A program made the position numbers and the translations under genes. Below, in pieces: positions 1,797 through 54,016 of a stretch of DNA of 64,000 nucleotides; position 1 is the first letter of the stretch, and every line of letters starts with the position of its first letter. The stretch is from Candidatus Poribacteria bacterium. Its GTDB lineage: Bacteria > Poribacteria > WGA-4E > JAJDTR01. A model generated the notes under the pieces. The model was given only the letters and a program-made list of their open reading frames with translations, did not search any database and was not told where the DNA came from. The stretch is taken from NCBI GenBank assembly GCA_965208765.1, contig OZ242354.1, positions 1,383,343-1,447,342 of the forward strand. Reading direction: 5' to 3'.

Positions 1797-3191
1797 CTAA
1801 TCTACGTTCGGTCCAAGCATCTTTTCCGGAACTACAATCTGGTCGAATTCCGTTTCCGTAAGAAGCTTCAGTTCGAGAGCTGCTTGTCGCAACGTTTTAC
1901 CTTCACTATGCGCCTTTTTGGCAACTCGAGCCGCATTGTCATAACCAATGTGGGGATTTAGTGCCGTCACCAACATTAAGGATTCGCTCAGATACTGTTC
2001 AATCTGTTTTCGATTGGGTTCGATTCCGACAACACAGTTCTTGCGGAATGAACGACAAGCATCTCCAAGGAGACGCACGGACTGCAACGCGTTGAAGGCG
2101 ATGACCGGCATGAATACATTCAGTTCGAAGTTTCCCGATGCTCCAGACAACGCGATTGTTGTATCATTGCCCATTACTTGAGCGCATACCATCAACATTG
2201 CTTCACACTGCGTAGGATTGACTTTGCCCGGCATTATCGAACTTCCCGGCTCGTTTTCAGGCAAGAAGAGTTCGCCGAGTCCGCAACGAGGTCCGCTTCC
2301 CAACCAACGAATGTCATTGGCAATTTTGAAGAGCGAACTTGCCAACACCTTAAACGCCCCGCTAGCTTCAACAACCGCGTCGCGCGCACCCAAGGCTTCA
2401 AACTTACTTGGCGCGGACGCGAACCGAATTCCCGTGCGTTTACTGATTGCGGCAACTGCACGATCGGCGTATTCAGGATGTGTATTTAATCCTGTCCCAA
2501 CGGCTGTACCACCAACAGGTAGTTCGTGCAAGTGCGGCAGTACGTGATCGATCGCTCTTAAGGCGTTGGACAACTGCTGCGTATACCCGGCAAATTCTTG
2601 TCCCAAGGTCAGAGGCGTAGCATCCATTAGATGTGTACGTCCAGTCTTTACGATCTCAGAAAACGCTTCTGATTTGTCGGCAAAAGTATCCCGAAGCGCT
2701 GTCACCTCCGGGACCAAGTGGTTGCGAATGCGATCAACGATTGCCACGTGAATAGCCGTTGGAAATGCATCGTTCGTGGATTGAGATTTGTTAATGTGAT
2801 CATTGGGATGGATAGGTTCTTTGCTACCCAGAACTCCGCCAAGCATTTCGACCGCTCGGTTTGCAATTACCTCGTTTGTATTCATGTTGGTCTGGGTGCC
2901 GCTGCCGGTTTGCCAAACAACCAGTGGAAAGTGGTCGTCCAATTCACCGTTTACCACCTCTTGAGCGGCTTGCATGACTACCTCTGCTTTATCTCGGTCA
3001 AGTAGTCCAAGAACCGAATTTACTTCGGCTATCGACTGTTTCACGATTCCTAGAGCCCACAACATTTCGCGTGGGAAGCGCTCTCCGCCGATTTCAAAGT
3101 TCTGCAAGGACCTCTGTGTCTGTGCTCCCCAATATCGATCGGCAGGAACCTCAATGTCTCCCATACTGTCTTTTTCAATTCGTGTTTTCAT
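1797..3191 (-). CDS. fumC: fumarate hydratase class II
   Basis: Full-length 464-aa protein with the fumarase/aspartase signature [16 protein letters not shown] and a typical FumC N-terminus ([19 protein letters not shown]). Confidence 0.95.
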
Positions 3192-5331: not shown

Positions 5332-5523
5332 AATCTAACCGAAGAGCCGGTATCTTTGACTCGTTAGGTCAACGTAACGCACAGAATGTTGCCGCACATG
5401 GAAACAGAAAAAGAGTTGATTTCCAGTGCCCAATGTGTTACCTTAGGGCTTTCTGAAATCAGGCAAGAATTGACGTTTCGCTCCGTGGGATAAATTGAAC
5501 GTAGGACCTCGGGCTGATGTAGA

Positions 5524-5788
5524 CTAGGTTCTGTTGACATTTACGTGAAGTGAGTGTCCAATCGTAGGGGCGAGGTTCCCTCGCCCGTTAAATGACGGGT
5601 TGGGAAACCCAACCACCAACTGAGCGAATAACGAAGGATCAAGGGAGCGGTTAGCGACCGCGATAGAAATCCCGTAGCGATCCCCTACGAAGATTGACCC
5701 AGTGTAGAGAGATCCCTTGTGGTTGCCCAACATTCTGCCTCAAGTGAATCAATATTGGCTCAATTTTCAAATGTCAACAGAACCTAGT
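5524..5788. repeat. structured element of about 265 bp (copy 1) bounded by a perfect 19-bp inverted repeat ctaggttctgttgacattt
   Basis: Perfect inverted repeat at both ends. Nested stems inside: cgtagggg...cccctacg enclosing gggcgagg-ttcc-cctcgccc and gggttggg-aaa-cccaacc. It shares a conserved core with 19600-19860. Confidence 0.5.
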
Positions 5789-5959
5789 GAAGTCATAAAT
5801 TATGCGACTTGTTTACCAAGAAACAGAAAGCCTGAGTTTTTGGTTCACGTTCGCTAGGTTTTAGAAAAATTCGATTTTCGTGGAGTTCCGCGTCTCCGTG
5901 TCCGCTGCGAAAAATTCCTGATTCATGTCTGATTAGCCTCCCAACGCGAAGAAATCAGC

Positions 5960-6373
5960 ATGCGATTTCAACACAGAAACCTTGCCATTTCACTTTTATT
6001 GATCAGTTTAGGGGCAACTGTTGGTTGTGCGAAAATTCTCGAAGATCAAACAGAACTAGAACGCGTCGAGGCGACTTTCTTTTACGATCCTACGTCGGCA
6101 TCCGTCCTCGGTGCCTATTCAGTTAAGTTGCCTGAAGAACGTCTCATACGAAGAATCATTGTCCATTCGCTTGACCCAATTCGAAACACTGATATTTATG
6201 TTCGAACTGGGGAACACGGATGGATTCATACAAGACAAATTAAGGGCTGGCTCAAAGGTGCTTCGACCATTGATATTCGAGCTAAGGGCGATGCGGTTCG
6301 AGTTATTCCCAAGACTGTACTGATTCGTGTCATTAAAGACATTGAAGTCTTTGCCGTGCCCAAACCAAATTAA
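5960..6373 (+). CDS. putative lipoprotein (small secreted protein family; the interrupted gene at 32954-33405 is a paralog)
   Basis: Signal peptide with a Cys (LLLISLGATVGC). It is homologous to the two fragments of the interrupted gene at 32954-33405 (PEERLIRRIIVH.../...IDIRAKGDAVRVIPK). Confidence 0.5.
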   Translation: MRFQHRNLAISLLLISLGATVGCAKILEDQTELERVEATFFYDPTSASVLGAYSVKLPEERLIRRIIVHSLDPIRNTDIYVRTGEHGWIHTRQIKGWLKGASTIDIRAKGDAVRVIPKTVLIRVIKDIEVFAVPKPN

Positions 6374-6939
6374 CTCCACGATACATCGCTAGGGAAGGAA
6401 TTCGGTATTGGAAAGTAACTAACCCTCGAAGCACTAGAAATACCACGATGCCAATGCTATATAGCATAGTAAACATAACCTTCCCCCTATTTTTCTTTGC
6501 CGGAACAGTCGGTTGCGCTCAACTAAAGACCGTTGGTGAAGGAGGACTGGAGCGGGCAGAAGACAATACTTGAGTTGACGCAATAGGCAGTGTTTTGCAC
6601 TTCGATGTCCACGATTCGCTATGAAAACTACTCGAATCCGGCATGATTGTCCGTTTAACCGCCAATCGATTTTATCGTCGCCGGAGCAGTTAGACTGTCG
6701 CAATCCGGTTTGAATCGCTTGATATTCGGGGGTGACCCCATCGTCGATTTCACACATTCGGGTCCAGGCATTTCTAAAGGCGAAGTGAGGACAAGTGGCA
6801 GTTCGACTCCTGTTGTTCCCTCGCATTCGTCGTATTGATGGGTTGATTTCTTCGAACCAAGCAAGTGGACCCGATGCTGCGCATGTTTCGTCACTCTTAC
6901 AAACTGATCTAGGCAGTTACCATCGGAGGATAGCAGCGA

Positions 6940-19490: not shown

Positions 19491-19599
19491 CGCTCCCACA
19501 GAAATCAGCACCAAGAGTCATCTTCTGTGGCGCACCCATCAATCAATGGGCTGGTATTCCCTCGCCCAAGTCTACATGGAATTTAATTGTTTAAGACAC

Positions 19600-19860
19600 T
19601 GATAACTGTTTAGTTCGGTCCAAAAAAGAAGAAAAATTAGTCTGGCATTTATTTGGGATTGACTGTCGCTAGGGTGAGCCTCCCTCTGCGAAAGTGGCAT
19701 CCCTCTGTGGGAAGGAATCAAGGGAGCGAACAGCGACCGCGATAGAGATCCCCCTGCCCCGATACTAACTACGGCGGACGTGCAATGAGTTGCTACTACA
19801 AACCGACATCGGCGGTATAGATTGATGAACTAAACAACTACAGACACTGAAACCACATGA
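19600..19860. repeat. structured element of about 260 bp (copy 2), sharing the gaaggatcaagggagcgNNNagcgaccgcgatagaRatccc core with 5524-5788
   Basis: Imperfect terminal inverted repeats (cactgataactgtttagttc / gaactaaacaactacagacactg) and internal stems (gtcgct...agcgac). A core of about 40 bp is about 88% identical to the element at 5524-5788. Confidence 0.45.
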
Positions 19861-19955
19861 TTAGTGCCCTAAAACGCTTAACTTAATCCCTACCCCTCGA
19901 CTAATGCGCACCCCTAACATAAATGTCAACAAAATTTCGTAATATAGGCTTCTAG

Positions 19956-45871: not shown

Positions 45872-46495
45872 ACAACACCGGATTCCTCAAACCCTGTAGG
45901 AGCGAGCAAGCGAACGGCCAGTGAGTGCAATGGAGTTTCGCTCCTGGTCGCGACCAAACCAATCCTCGATCGCCAACTACGCGATTTCCGCTTCCCTTCT
46001 AGTCATTGTTCCGCTCTCCAATCGTCCGCGTACAACCGATCCCTGCACCAAGTCGCCACAGCCCACTGCTTTTAGCCCTACTGTGCGATATTGTCGGCAT
46101 CTGATCAAAGATTCGTTTTGTCCCAATACTGAGGGTATCGAGATCGGGGTATCAGACACGGGATTTGCACCTCGAAAAACCTTACCTGAACATATCCAAA
46201 TTTCTTTTGGTGCCAGGTGCAAATTTCAGATGCTGTTTCCGCGGGCGACATCCGAGAAATGGTTGCCAAAATGCGGCGGCAATGTTAACATTCTACCGGA
46301 AAAAGTCGCGGTCTATGCCGCGAGCCGCATCAACTGGAGGACAGCGCGGAGATGCAGTTAGCCTTTATTGAGGGGGATTGTGAGAATTACACCAATTCTC
46401 ATGCATCGAATGCCGGAAAGTTGTCCGAGGCCTCTTTTCAGGAGTATGAAGCGGTTTCGGATGATGATATTGACGCACTCATTGATGAGATGAAG

Positions 46496-47034
46496 CCACT
46501 AAGTGGTTCATTCGCTAAGAATTTAATGCTTACGAGACTGGCACAAAAAACTGTTCTACCACGCCGGTAGGTGCGGTTTCTAACCGCACCGGCTCCCAAC
46601 ACTAACCATATTTTTTTGGAAAATAAACCACTTAGTGGTCTATTCTCTAAGTATTTAATGCTTACGAGACTGGCACGAGAAACCGTTCTACCACGCCGGT
46701 AGGTGCGGTTTCTAACCGCACCGGCTCCCAACACTAACCATATTTTTTTAGAAAATAAACCACTAAGTGGTCTATTCGCTAAGAATTTAATGCTTACGAG
46801 ACTGGCACAAAAAACTGTTCTACCACGCCGGTAGGTGCGGTTTCTAACCGCACCGGCTCCCAACACTAACCATATTTTTTTGGAAAATAAACCACTAAGT
46901 GGTCTATTCGCTAAGAATTTAACGCTTGCGAGACTGGCACAAGAAACTGTTCTACCACGCCGGTAGGTGCGGTTTCTAACCGCACCGGCTCCCAACACTA
47001 ACCATATTTTTTTGGAAAATAAACCACTAAGTGA
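46496..47034. repeat. tandem array of 4.1 units of the 132-bp hairpin repeat
   Basis: Unit starts at 46496, 46628, 46760, 46892 and 47024, an exact 132-bp period. The units are over 90% identical and each contains the hairpin ccgg-ta-ggtgcggtt-tct-aaccgcacc-gg. Confidence 0.9.
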
Positions 47035-47404: not shown

Positions 47405-47863
47405 TCGAGATGCGGTGTCGCGCGACGGTAACAGGTATTCGCAAATTGATGTTTTGCGGAACCCTCTCCGTCTATCTGCAAGAGAATCTCTTGAAAACGA
47501 CAGTGAATAAGGTATAGTCATGATAGATTTATTTCTACTATGGCGGTGGATGAAAAAAGAACGCGACGGTGAGACTCGATTGGCAAAACAAAGGGGTAGA
47601 ATAGAAGGGGCAAATGCGAGGGATAAAGTATGGATTTCGTGGTACGAGCGCAAGATGCAAGCGGAGCAGAATGGTGTTGAGTTTGATGAACCTCCGCCTC
47701 ATTTAGTGCCGCGCAAGCGTGCTAAAATAGTTAGGAGGTAAAGAGAGATTGTGACGCCGACAATGCGAAGCGAATTGGTAGGTATTGGGAGACTGGGCAG
47801 GGGATTTCTATCGCACTCCCTGATCGGTCGTTTGATTGCTCCCACTGCCCATATCCGCCGAGA

Positions 47864-52516: not shown

Positions 52517-54016
52517 TTGACGGACATTGAAGGGACAGGAAAATTGGAAGCGCCCAGTGATCTGATTGCACAGCGCCGAGAAAAGTTGGAAGAAATCCGA
52601 AATCTCGGCGCAAATCCATATCCGTACCGATACTCGCCAACACACACCACTTCTGAAATCCATCGACAGTTCGCCGAAGTCCAAGAAACTCCTGACGAAA
52701 GTAAACCAATCTGCATTGCCGGGCGTATCATGACCAAGCGGGATCACGGCAAGAGTAGCTTTGCCAATGTGCAGGATTCCGAAGGACAGATTCAAATTTA
52801 CGTCCGCCAGAATGTCGTCGGTGCAGATGTTTACGATATCTACAAGATGCTTGACGTTGGCGACATCGTCGGCGTAAAAGGGGTTGTTTTCCGCACTCGA
52901 ACGGGTGAACTCACGGTCCTGGCAAGTGACATCCAACTCCTGTCCAAATCGCTTCGTCCACTACCGGAAAAATGGCACGGTCTGCAGGACAAGGAAACTC
53001 GCTATCGTCAGCGTTACGCCGATCTGATCATGAATCGCGAGGTAAAGGAGGTATTTGCCAAGCGAACCTTAATCGTTCAGGCTATCCGTGATTATCTGAA
53101 TGCCGTAGATTTTATTGAAGTTGAAACGCCGGTACTTCAACCAATTTATGGCGGAGCGAATGCGCGGCCATTTGTCACCCACCACAATACGCTGGACCAG
53201 ACGCTCTACTTGCGCATTGCGAATGAGCTCTATCTGAAGCGCTTGATTGTCGGGGGATTTGATCGAGTGTACGAGTTCTCAAAGGATTTTCGGAATGAAG
53301 GCATGGACCGCGATCACAATCCCGAATTTACGATGCTTGAGTTGTATCAGGCTTATGCGGACTACGAAGATATCATGTGCCTCACGGAACAACTGATCGC
53401 TCACACCGCGAAAGAGGTGGTCGGAAGCACCGGGATAACCTTTCAGGGCGAAGAAATATCGCTGGAACCGCCGTGGCAGCGGCTCACCATGACCGAGTCA
53501 ATCGGTGCGGAGACCGGGATTGATGTAGAATCCCTCAATGACAGCGCACTGCAGGATGCCGCGTTAGATGCAAACGTCGACTTGGATGGAATTGAATCGA
53601 GAGGGGAAACCATAGCGGCGATGTTTGATTCACTTGTCGAACCCAATCTGATTCAACCTACGTTCATCTGCGACTACCCGATCGAGGTGTCGCCGTTTGC
53701 CAAAAAGAAGCGGGGCGACGAACGATTTGTGGAGCGGTTCGAGTACTTCATGGTGGGCATGGAAATGGGCAACGCCTTCAGCGAACTGAACGATCCGATT
53801 GACCAACGTGAGCGATTTATAGAGCAGGGAAAGAAACTCGAAGCCGGGGACGAGGAAGCATTCATGGTCGACGAGGATTATCTCCGGGCGATGGAATACG
53901 GTATGCCTCCAACAGGCGGTCTCGGATTTGGCGTCGATCGACTTACCATGTTGCTAACGGATCAACGATCTATTCGGGATGTCATCTTTTTCCCGCAGAT
54001 GCGCCCCGAAGACTAA
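52517..54016 (+). CDS. lysS: lysine--tRNA ligase (class II)
   Basis: Class II motifs (FRNEGMDRDHNPEFTMLELY; ...GGLGFGVDRLTMLLT). Probable TTG start. It sits in the classic prfB-lysS arrangement. Confidence 0.92.
   Translation: MTDIEGTGKLEAPSDLIAQRREKLEEIRNLGANPYPYRYSPTHTTSEIHRQFAEVQETPDESKPICIAGRIMTKRDHGKSSFANVQDSEGQIQIYVRQNVVGADVYDIYKMLDVGDIVGVKGVVFRTRTGELTVLASDIQLLSKSLRPLPEKWHGLQDKETRYRQRYADLIMNREVKEVFAKRTLIVQAIRDYLNAVDFIEVETPVLQPIYGGANARPFVTHHNTLDQTLYLRIANELYLKRLIVGGFDRVYEFSKDFRNEGMDRDHNPEFTMLELYQAYADYEDIMCLTEQLIAHTAKEVVGSTGITFQGEEISLEPPWQRLTMTESIGAETGIDVESLNDSALQDAALDANVDLDGIESRGETIAAMFDSLVEPNLIQPTFICDYPIEVSPFAKKKRGDERFVERFEYFMVGMEMGNAFSELNDPIDQRERFIEQGKKLEAGDEEAFMVDEDYLRAMEYGMPPTGGLGFGVDRLTMLLTDQRSIRDVIFFPQMRPED

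Follow-up and report, generated by a model that had tools for sequence, protein, structure and literature searches.

A REP-associated repeat module shared by two unrelated miniature transposons of Candidatus Poribacteria

The window analysed here is a 64-kb stretch of DNA from Candidatus Poribacteria, uncultivated symbionts of sponges. Two intergenic elements in it, copy A (5524-5787) and copy B (19603-19841), share a 36-nucleotide (nt) module, and a sequence-only reading of the window had taken them for two copies of one hairpin-rich element that was either mobile or a structured RNA. Comparison with loci fetched from other genomes (numbered with an L below) indicates that they are very probably mobile repetitive DNA and not an RNA gene. 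Instead of one element, they are two unrelated shells, each a miniature inverted-repeat transposable element (MITE), which share a separately inserted module associated with repetitive extragenic palindromes (REPs). The mobile origin suggested earlier is upheld by insertion sequence (IS) ends and an empty site for copy A, and by a 9-bp target duplication together with a filled and empty pair of a sister element for copy B.

Copy A and the IS5 family

It is strongly supported that copy A is a MITE derived from an IS5-family insertion sequence of the DUF4096 plus DDE type. The element is small, has no transposase gene and has an interior made of repeat hairpins. It lies between genes, as the sequence-only reading had stated for both elements, with a transglutaminase-like/TPR gene on one side and an unassigned open reading frame (ORF) on the other. 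The perfect 19-bp inverted repeat described as its boundary is confirmed, with arms of 20 nt that are 100% complementary (5523-5542 and 5769-5788), and all three nested stems named there are present. The 19-mer CTAGGTTCTGTTGACATTT has two sites in the whole window, which are the two ends of copy A. The features of the element are as follows.

5524-5787, no strand: copy A, 264-bp non-autonomous IS5-family MITE, CTAG at both ends included; ends identical to those of the IS, absent in L166
5524-5542, plus strand: left terminal inverted repeat CTAGGTTCTGTTGACATTT, from the inverted-repeat search and IS-end matches
5769-5787, minus strand: right terminal inverted repeat AAATGTCAACAGAACCTAG, from the inverted-repeat search and IS-end matches
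5562-5570 and 5682-5690: stem TCGTAGGGG / CCCCTACGA
5682-5690, plus strand: CCCCTACGA, complement of the GTAGGGG head (5562-5570), closing the inner long hairpin
5568-5575 and 5579-5586: stem GGGCGAGG / CCTCGCCC
5564-5586, plus strand: GTAG-tagged REP hairpin GTAGGGGCGAGG-TTC-CCTCGCCC
5598-5614, plus strand: small hairpin GGTTGGG-AAA-CCCAACC, stems 5598-5604 and 5608-5614
5617-5636, plus strand: left half-unit of the repeat module, CAACTGAGCGAATAACGAAG, within a 21-mer that recurs elsewhere and in a nested left/right architecture
5637-5672, plus strand: 36-nt repeat module (the core), GATCAAGGGAGCGGTTAGCGACCGCGATAGAAATCC

The family of the ends was established from metagenome contigs, which were scanned with the IS-end pattern CTAGNTTCTGTTGACATTT, a pattern that itself fixes CTAG. 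At least 120 contigs from many environments match, and among the matches listed 13 contigs carry inverted pairs of ends 97-926 bp apart: six of these two-ended elements measure 805-835 bp, one measures 926 bp and the others measure 97-307 bp and have unrelated interiors. The 19-nt ends of copy A are the ends both of the 805-835-bp IS5-family elements and of the 97-307-bp MITEs. ORFs in an 817-bp copy of the IS match DUF4096 and DDE_Tnp_1, and plasmid DNA similar to this copy carries the annotation 'IS5 family transposase'; we take such a two-ORF DUF4096 plus DDE element of about 0.8 kb to belong to an IS427/IS1031-like subgroup. No duplication beyond CTAG is seen in the 13 two-ended copies, the palindromic CTAG making duplications of TA, TAG and CTAG indistinguishable. 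The poribacterial module was found in none of the 120 metagenome loci with copy-A-type ends among the matches listed.

An empty site is available for copy A. The syntenic locus, comprising genes for a fumarase, an aldolase II and a transglutaminase-like protein, the intergenic region, and genes for a 265-aa protein and a flavin adenine dinucleotide (FAD) protein, was recovered from three related genomes. The orthologous region of L166, where the neighbouring protein is 88% identical, aligns with the window on both flanks, with one gap that opens just inside the left CTAG and reaches the right CTAG (GACTAG[...]TGAAG in the window, GACCAA-TGAAG in L166). At the junctions the window has GATGTAGACTAG, 260 bp and TGAAGTCATAAAT, in place of GGTGTGGACCAA-TGAAGCAATAAAT in L166. 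L166 lacks exactly copy A, so the entire 264 bp, REPs and module included, arrived as a single unit. Copy A would then be an internally replaced derivative that keeps only the 19-bp IS5-family ends, probably moved in trans by an IS5-family transposase and inserted at a CTAG/TA target.

Several observations concern the surroundings of copy A and elements of its type. The window holds one intact A-type element. At 19921-19934, downstream of copy B by about 80 bp, AAATGTCAACAAAA differs by one mismatch from the right end of copy A and may be a relic left from another IS5-type MITE. A weak 19-nt inverted repeat at 19634-19652 and 19919-19937 (74% complementary) is at most what remains of an A-type end. 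The intergenic region 5332-6939, which harbours copy A, is 1608 bp long in the window, 232 bp in L167, 566 bp in L168 and 854 bp in L166. A 137-aa ORF (5960-6373), most of which is missing in L166, matches nothing in Pfam and includes an inverted module half-unit (6157-6177), and so is perhaps not a gene. A DUF4096-like frame (IS5-family orfA) lies at 4006-4374 of L007, about 300 bp from an array of GTAGG and module, and an IS5-like end, GAGAGCCTGTTGAAAAG, stands between frame and array, a few bases ahead of the GTAGG head.

Copy B and a second MITE family

Copy B is, on strong support, a MITE of a second family unrelated to that of copy A. The earlier description of its terminal inverted repeats as imperfect holds. 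The limits then proposed, 19600-19860, do not, and the 9-bp flanks place the true limits at 19603-19841.

19603-19841, no strand: copy B, 239-bp MITE with ends TAACTGTTTAGTTC (19603-19616) and GAACTAAACAACTAC (19827-19841)
19594-19602, plus strand: left 9-bp target-site duplication AGACACTGA
19842-19850, plus strand: right 9-bp target-site duplication AGACACTGA
19716-19751, plus strand: 36-nt module of copy B, AATCAAGGGAGCGAACAGCGACCGCGATAGAGATCC; a 32-nt stretch covering it is absent from the L023 paralogue

The inverted ends are 14-15 nt long and include the imperfect repeat TGTTTAGTTC / GAACTAAACA (19607-19616 and 19827-19836). The duplication is perfect, and on the plus strand of the window the 9-mer AGACACTGA occurs at the two flanks of copy B and nowhere else. 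The element lies between a class-III aminotransferase gene and a gene for a TPR protein. Ends of the copy B type are also present in L020, L022, L023, L030 and L031. A sister element in L168 (336 bp) has ends like those of copy B, a 9-bp duplication, GACAGAATG, and an interior crowded with GTAGG-REP and module arrays. L167, nearly identical in all else, lacks the element, which gives a filled and empty pair. Target duplications of 9 bp are compatible with several IS families. The ends and target duplications of A and B differ, and the possibility that they are two copies of one MITE was rejected. Copy B would be a DDE-type non-autonomous transposon that duplicated 9 bp of its target.

The shared 36-nt module

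What the two shells share is the module. Its core, TCAAGGGAGCGNNNAGCGACCGCGATAGA, has exactly two sites in the 64 kb, 5639-5667 and 19718-19746, both on the plus strand (0/100 shuffles), and the two 36-nt modules are 88.9% identical by BLAST, in agreement with the roughly 88% reported earlier. For its distribution, the pattern AGGGAGCGNNNAGCGACCGCGAT (20 specified bases) was scanned by exact match in one genome per species across 185,579 species. This yielded 36 loci, 35 of them from Candidatus Poribacteria (about nine assemblies; eight at most in one genome). The 36th, L004 (Aquamicrobium), has flanks unrelated to the module family and was treated as a chance match. The window too is poribacterial by its proteins: the transglutaminase-like protein P0121 has a 100% identical counterpart on a 6.49-Mb contig, and its closest homologues with a name come from Ca. 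Poribacteria. A profile of the 36-nt unit detects about 180 more full or partial copies within the same loci, often diverged; exact-match retrieval inflates the apparent conservation of the core, and the matches of the hidden Markov model (HMM) span a wide spectrum of decay. By a crude ORF call, 36 of 38 exact-core copies lie outside long ORFs and the other two are in doubtful ORFs. They point in random directions relative to the genes on either side (15 same/same, 11 opposite/opposite, 5 and 4 mixed), which argues against an untranslated-region or cis-regulatory element.

Sixty-one copies, aligned without gaps, give the consensus GGGATCAAGGGAGCGAATAGCGACCGCGATAGAGATCCC, which is made up of three direct sub-repeats, each about 12 nt long: GATCAAGGGAGCG, GATAGCGACCGC and GATAGAGATCC. 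It can also be drawn as a hairpin in which GGGATC/GATCCC and GCGG/CCGC stems surround a 6x6 internal loop, and diverged copies such as GATCAAGCGAACGGATAGTGAGTGCGATAG drop the inner GCGG/CCGC stem and keep the 12-nt periodic (G)AT(C)A(A)G-N-GA. Modules also nest. Left half-units (GATCAAGNGANNGNATARNGA) are followed by right half-units (CGATAGARATCC) in an L^n R^n arrangement, the counts of the two kinds of unit being correlated (Spearman 0.56, p = 3e-4), and the inner unit enters the outer one at a fixed point, ...ATAAGGA^TGCGATAG. The 21-mer of the left half-unit of copy A recurs in L005, L023 and L033, and within longer matches in L007, L009, L017, L018 and L024. A tandem array at 1953-2412 of L015 (minus strand) consists of nine 53-bp units, each with the 3' two-thirds of the module.

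Paralogues of the B type bear on the relation between module and shell. The window and L031 carry the module, and L023 has a clean 32-nt gap at that place; conversely, where the window reads just GTTG, L031 and L023 have at least one inverted module. As judged from these sequences, the module is gained and lost independently of the MITE shells.

Elements with module-type ends also interrupt a clustered regularly interspaced short palindromic repeats (CRISPR) array. The array, at 1500-3958 of L005 (CBDCTK010000002.1), has a 37-nt repeat that starts with GTAG, and four of its repeats are split by elements of about 160-230 bp with inverted module-type ends (GATCAAG..GCGATAG ... CTATCGC..TTGATC). 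Each of these elements is flanked by a 12-nt duplication, CCCGAYGAAAAG, and at one site five stand in tandem with the 12-mer between them.

Two further diverged copies of the module were noted in the window, at 45896-45944 and 47801-47837; one is in the loop of a GTAGGAGCGA...TCGCTCC hairpin, and the other is inverted and downstream of GTAGG.

GTAG-headed REPs and RAYT genes

The module is tied to REPs by position and polarity. In 12 of 38 copies the same strand carries an exact GTAGG no more than 22 nt upstream of the module array, against a background of 1.8% (p = 2e-12), and CCTAC lies upstream in none of the 38. Several further copies are preceded by GTGGG or TTAGG. The head is not a constant part of the module unit, and its distance from the module varies from 1 to about 10 nt. 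Module arrays lie inside hairpins of at least five GTAG-REP classes, for example GGTAGGTGC, array, TTTCCAACCGCACC in L008 and GTAGGCGG, module, TTGCCCCGC in L025, and the REPs that host them are also found free of inserts elsewhere, the window included.

REPs as described have GTAG heads, stems of 6-13 bp, complex loops including GCGG/CCGC termini, insertion into other palindromes, and an organization into REPtrons (PMC3733652, PMC8266576). The hairpin 5564-5586 of copy A (GTAG-GGGCGAGG-TTC-CCTCGCCC) has the features of a GTAG-REP (PMC3733652), and 25-26 nt of its sequence recur in L011 (twice), L018, L027 and L035, with a shorter match of 18 nt in L023. The window contains 24 matches to GTAGG plus a stem, compared with 9 in shuffles, and at least 14 of them are short hairpins of named REP classes.

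A tblastn search with E. coli RayT detected genes or fragments of REP-associated tyrosine transposases (RAYTs) in 4 of the 35 module-selected 8-kb loci (L006, L025, L028 and, as a fragment, L033). The three intact genes match NF047646 (NCBIfam 'REP-associated tyrosine transposase', cutoff 80 bits) at 202, 128 and 124 bits, and also Pfam Y1_Tnp. In L006 the RAYT gene is flanked by 34-nt inverted modules, 91% complementary, that abut plain GTAG-REPs. Nine RAYT loci (eight gene contexts) were also fetched independently of the module, five of clade A (L157, L159, L160, L161 and L163) and four of clade B (L169-L172). All have the classical REPtron layout with plain GTAG-REPs as flanks, GTAGGT[TC]GGGT... 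in clade A and mainly GTAGGAGGGAACTCCGATTCCCGAC and related forms in clade B. The module was rejected as the cognate REP of either clade, the REPtron flanks being plain REPs. In the window itself, the weak match of E. coli RayT by tblastn, at 52961-53209, lies inside a 499-aa ORF that resembles lysyl-tRNA synthetase and is not a transposase.

Further REP observations come from the window and from L006. The REP1 class, GTAGGTGCGGTT..., has nine copies (14544, 14679, 19461, 30676, 33079 and 46567-46963, four of them in one tandem array), whose heads are on the plus strand nine times and on the minus strand never, with genes nearby in both directions; such a bias could follow the replication strand, as single-strand transposition would lead one to expect. 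A 132-bp tandem repeat at 46496-47033 (4.1 copies, 95% identity) carries the GTAG-REP GGTAGGTGCGGTTTCTAACCGCACC in each unit. The region 696-3118 of L006 holds two RAYT copies about 2 kb apart, one intact (2576-3118) and the other broken and followed by a methyltransferase-like ORF, together with 414-bp tandem repeats rich in CCCAACCTAC REP tails.

How the module may spread

The interiors of both shells consist of Poribacteria-specific REP-type sequences, hairpins preceded by GTAGG, with the module seated in or beside hairpins that have a GTAG head and belong to several REP classes; one genome has it inside a CRISPR repeat. We infer, tentatively and at somewhat less than even confidence, that the module spreads by the HUH chemistry that RAYTs use on GTAG-REPs. 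RAYT/IS200-type HUH enzymes would cleave and join single strands next to GTAG heads, guided by hairpins. Three observations support this proposal: the module keeps a fixed polarity to GTAGG, it resides in hairpins, and RAYT genes lie near it. The REP1 copies, all on the plus strand, also point there.

A stronger version, which we consider unlikely, makes the module a mobile unit of its own, among the smallest known: a polar, non-palindromic mini-element that HUH transposases of the RAYT type paste into GTAG-headed single-strand hairpins. Its targets would include several REP classes, the centre of the module itself, giving the nested arrays, and CRISPR repeats that start with GTAG. It would parasitise the REP/RAYT system and could inactivate CRISPR arrays.

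Several points weigh against these proposals and against the wider account of MITE shells and REP-associated module. The 12-nt duplication in L005 looks more like the work of a DDE-type transposase than of HUH chemistry. A few extra bases distinguish filled from empty REP sites, so that the insertion junctions are not clean; a GATC target with a 4-bp duplication fits some filled and empty pairs (a REP with a GATC loop, and GGATT in L023) but not the REP1 sites or the nested insertions. No module adjoins the RAYT genes in the nine independently fetched loci, where the sole match, in L157, is weak and about 570 bp upstream, so that module and RAYT may be linked indirectly, by way of REP clusters. 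A single further A-type shell, a related one in L036, was seen to carry the module, the genome of copy A itself was covered over the 64 kb of the window, and the numbers of module copies per genome are lower bounds from an exact-match scan.

Alternative explanations

According to the structured-RNA reading, the core would be a structured non-coding or cis-regulatory RNA, its stems would be helices and the inverted repeat of copy A would close an RNA of about 260 nt. Three observations favour this: copy A folds far better than shuffles on the plus strand (z = -7.6), the core is near-invariant across species, and some stem positions show changes compatible with G-U pairing. The minus strand of copy A folds nearly as well (z = -6.5), however, as expected of a DNA palindrome, and copy B folds no better than shuffles (z = -0.6). 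The Rfam search that had been suggested gave no match at gathering thresholds in the whole 64-kb window, and local searches with E up to 10 returned chance-level hits, among them Trp_leader on the minus strand (16.7 bits, threshold 41) and eukaryotic or archaeal small-RNA families of the microRNA and small nucleolar RNA kinds (11-15 bits, thresholds 45-53). The 61 module copies show no covariation (74.6% paired cells versus 74.7% in column shuffles; score 0.145 versus 0.156). Complementarity between the flanks of solo modules was considered as covariation and rejected, being no better than that of mismatched pairs (permutation p = 0.2), because left flanks are all G-rich and right flanks all C-rich. 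Neither intergenic region has a sigma-70-like promoter or an intrinsic terminator above chance. Diverged modules lose the inner stem and keep the 12-nt periodicity, their orientation to genes is random, and the closing 'stem' of copy A is the end of an IS5-family transposon. A literature search returned no paper on a Poribacteria RNA motif. With the Rfam, covariation, orientation and promoter or terminator tests all negative, we regard an RNA as extremely improbable.

The two remaining explanations keep to DNA. In one, which we consider distinctly unlikely, the module would be the terminal inverted repeat of its own DDE-type MITE family, and solo or nested modules would be relics or abortive products unrelated to RAYTs. 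The CRISPR insertions of L005, with inverted module-type ends, a 12-nt duplication and five copies in tandem, speak for such a family, and L018, L033 and L031 too contain pairs of inverted modules, at distances of 150-270 bp. Yet the inverted pairs outside the CRISPR array lack a target duplication, no transposase gene bounded by modules was found in about 350 kb of poribacterial sequence, where the only gene between inverted modules is that of a RAYT, and solo modules are complete 36-nt units with fixed polarity to GTAGG heads. Nesting at one internal position is not predicted by the decay of inverted repeats. In the other, which appears very unlikely, the host would keep the module as a row of sites that a DNA-binding protein occupies on one helix face, and the module would spread passively with REPs and MITEs. 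The three sub-repeats of about 12 nt with their conserved (G)AT(C)A(A)G-N-GA would suit this, as would the near-identity of the core in different species and its place inside REP hairpins, which recalls the extra-REP motifs of bacterial interspersed mosaic elements (BIMEs). The motif bound by integration host factor (IHF) between two REPs of E. coli BIMEs would be an analogue. Against it, the IHF consensus WATCAANNNNTTR is matched only at ATCAA, and the module was rejected as an IHF site; the apparent conservation is that of exact-match retrieval, beside widely decayed HMM matches. Positions show no preference relative to genes, and presence or absence, nesting and tandem amplification are typical of selfish repeats. 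We therefore retain the explanation by two MITEs and a REP-associated module.

Implications

For annotation, the two regions should be masked as repeats (MITE and REP-type) and not as RNA genes, and short ORFs inside the elements, such as the 69-aa ORF at 5524-5733, should be distrusted. The sharing of one self-nesting module by two unrelated MITE shells, and its presence in a CRISPR array, suggest an active interplay of DDE-type and HUH-type mobile DNA in these genomes. The elements offer natural strain markers in metagenomes. No long-standing question is opened by the finding. The kinds of repeat are themselves known; new are the IS5-family MITE, the second MITE family and the REP-associated module in a phylum for which a full-text literature search found no published description of interspersed repeats.

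Comparison with known systems

Copy A resembles MITEs derived from IS5-family elements in having the exact 19-nt ends of an 805-835-bp IS at a length too short for a transposase. Its boundary lies at CTAG with no further duplication, as expected for TA/CTAG targets, it is cleanly present or absent at an orthologous site, and other MITEs share its ends and differ inside. It differs from them in its interior, which consists of host-specific GTAG-REP hairpins and the module and is not a deletion derivative of the IS.

The module is like REPs, BIMEs and REPINs in being short, intergenic and multi-copy with hairpin potential (PMC3733652, PMC8266576, PMC3116915). It shares with them, in part of its copies, a GTAG(G) head 5' of the module on the same strand, and further the occurrence as singletons, inverted pairs, clusters and tandems, and the RAYT genes nearby. 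Unlike REPs, it is not a clean palindrome but a set of three direct sub-repeats whose inner stem is lost on divergence, it resides within at least five GTAG-REP classes and not in one, and it nests in itself at a fixed point. In both local clades, moreover, the repeats that flank RAYT genes are plain REPs and not the module.

A further parallel may lie in insertion sequences that target REPs. IS1397 and ISKpn1 of the IS3 family, as well as IS621 and other members of the IS110 family, insert in or next to REP stem-loops, and the module likewise occurs repeatedly at the same type of structured target. Whereas those elements are full-length and protein-coding and have defined junctions, the module is 36 nt long and non-coding, and its junctions are not clean.

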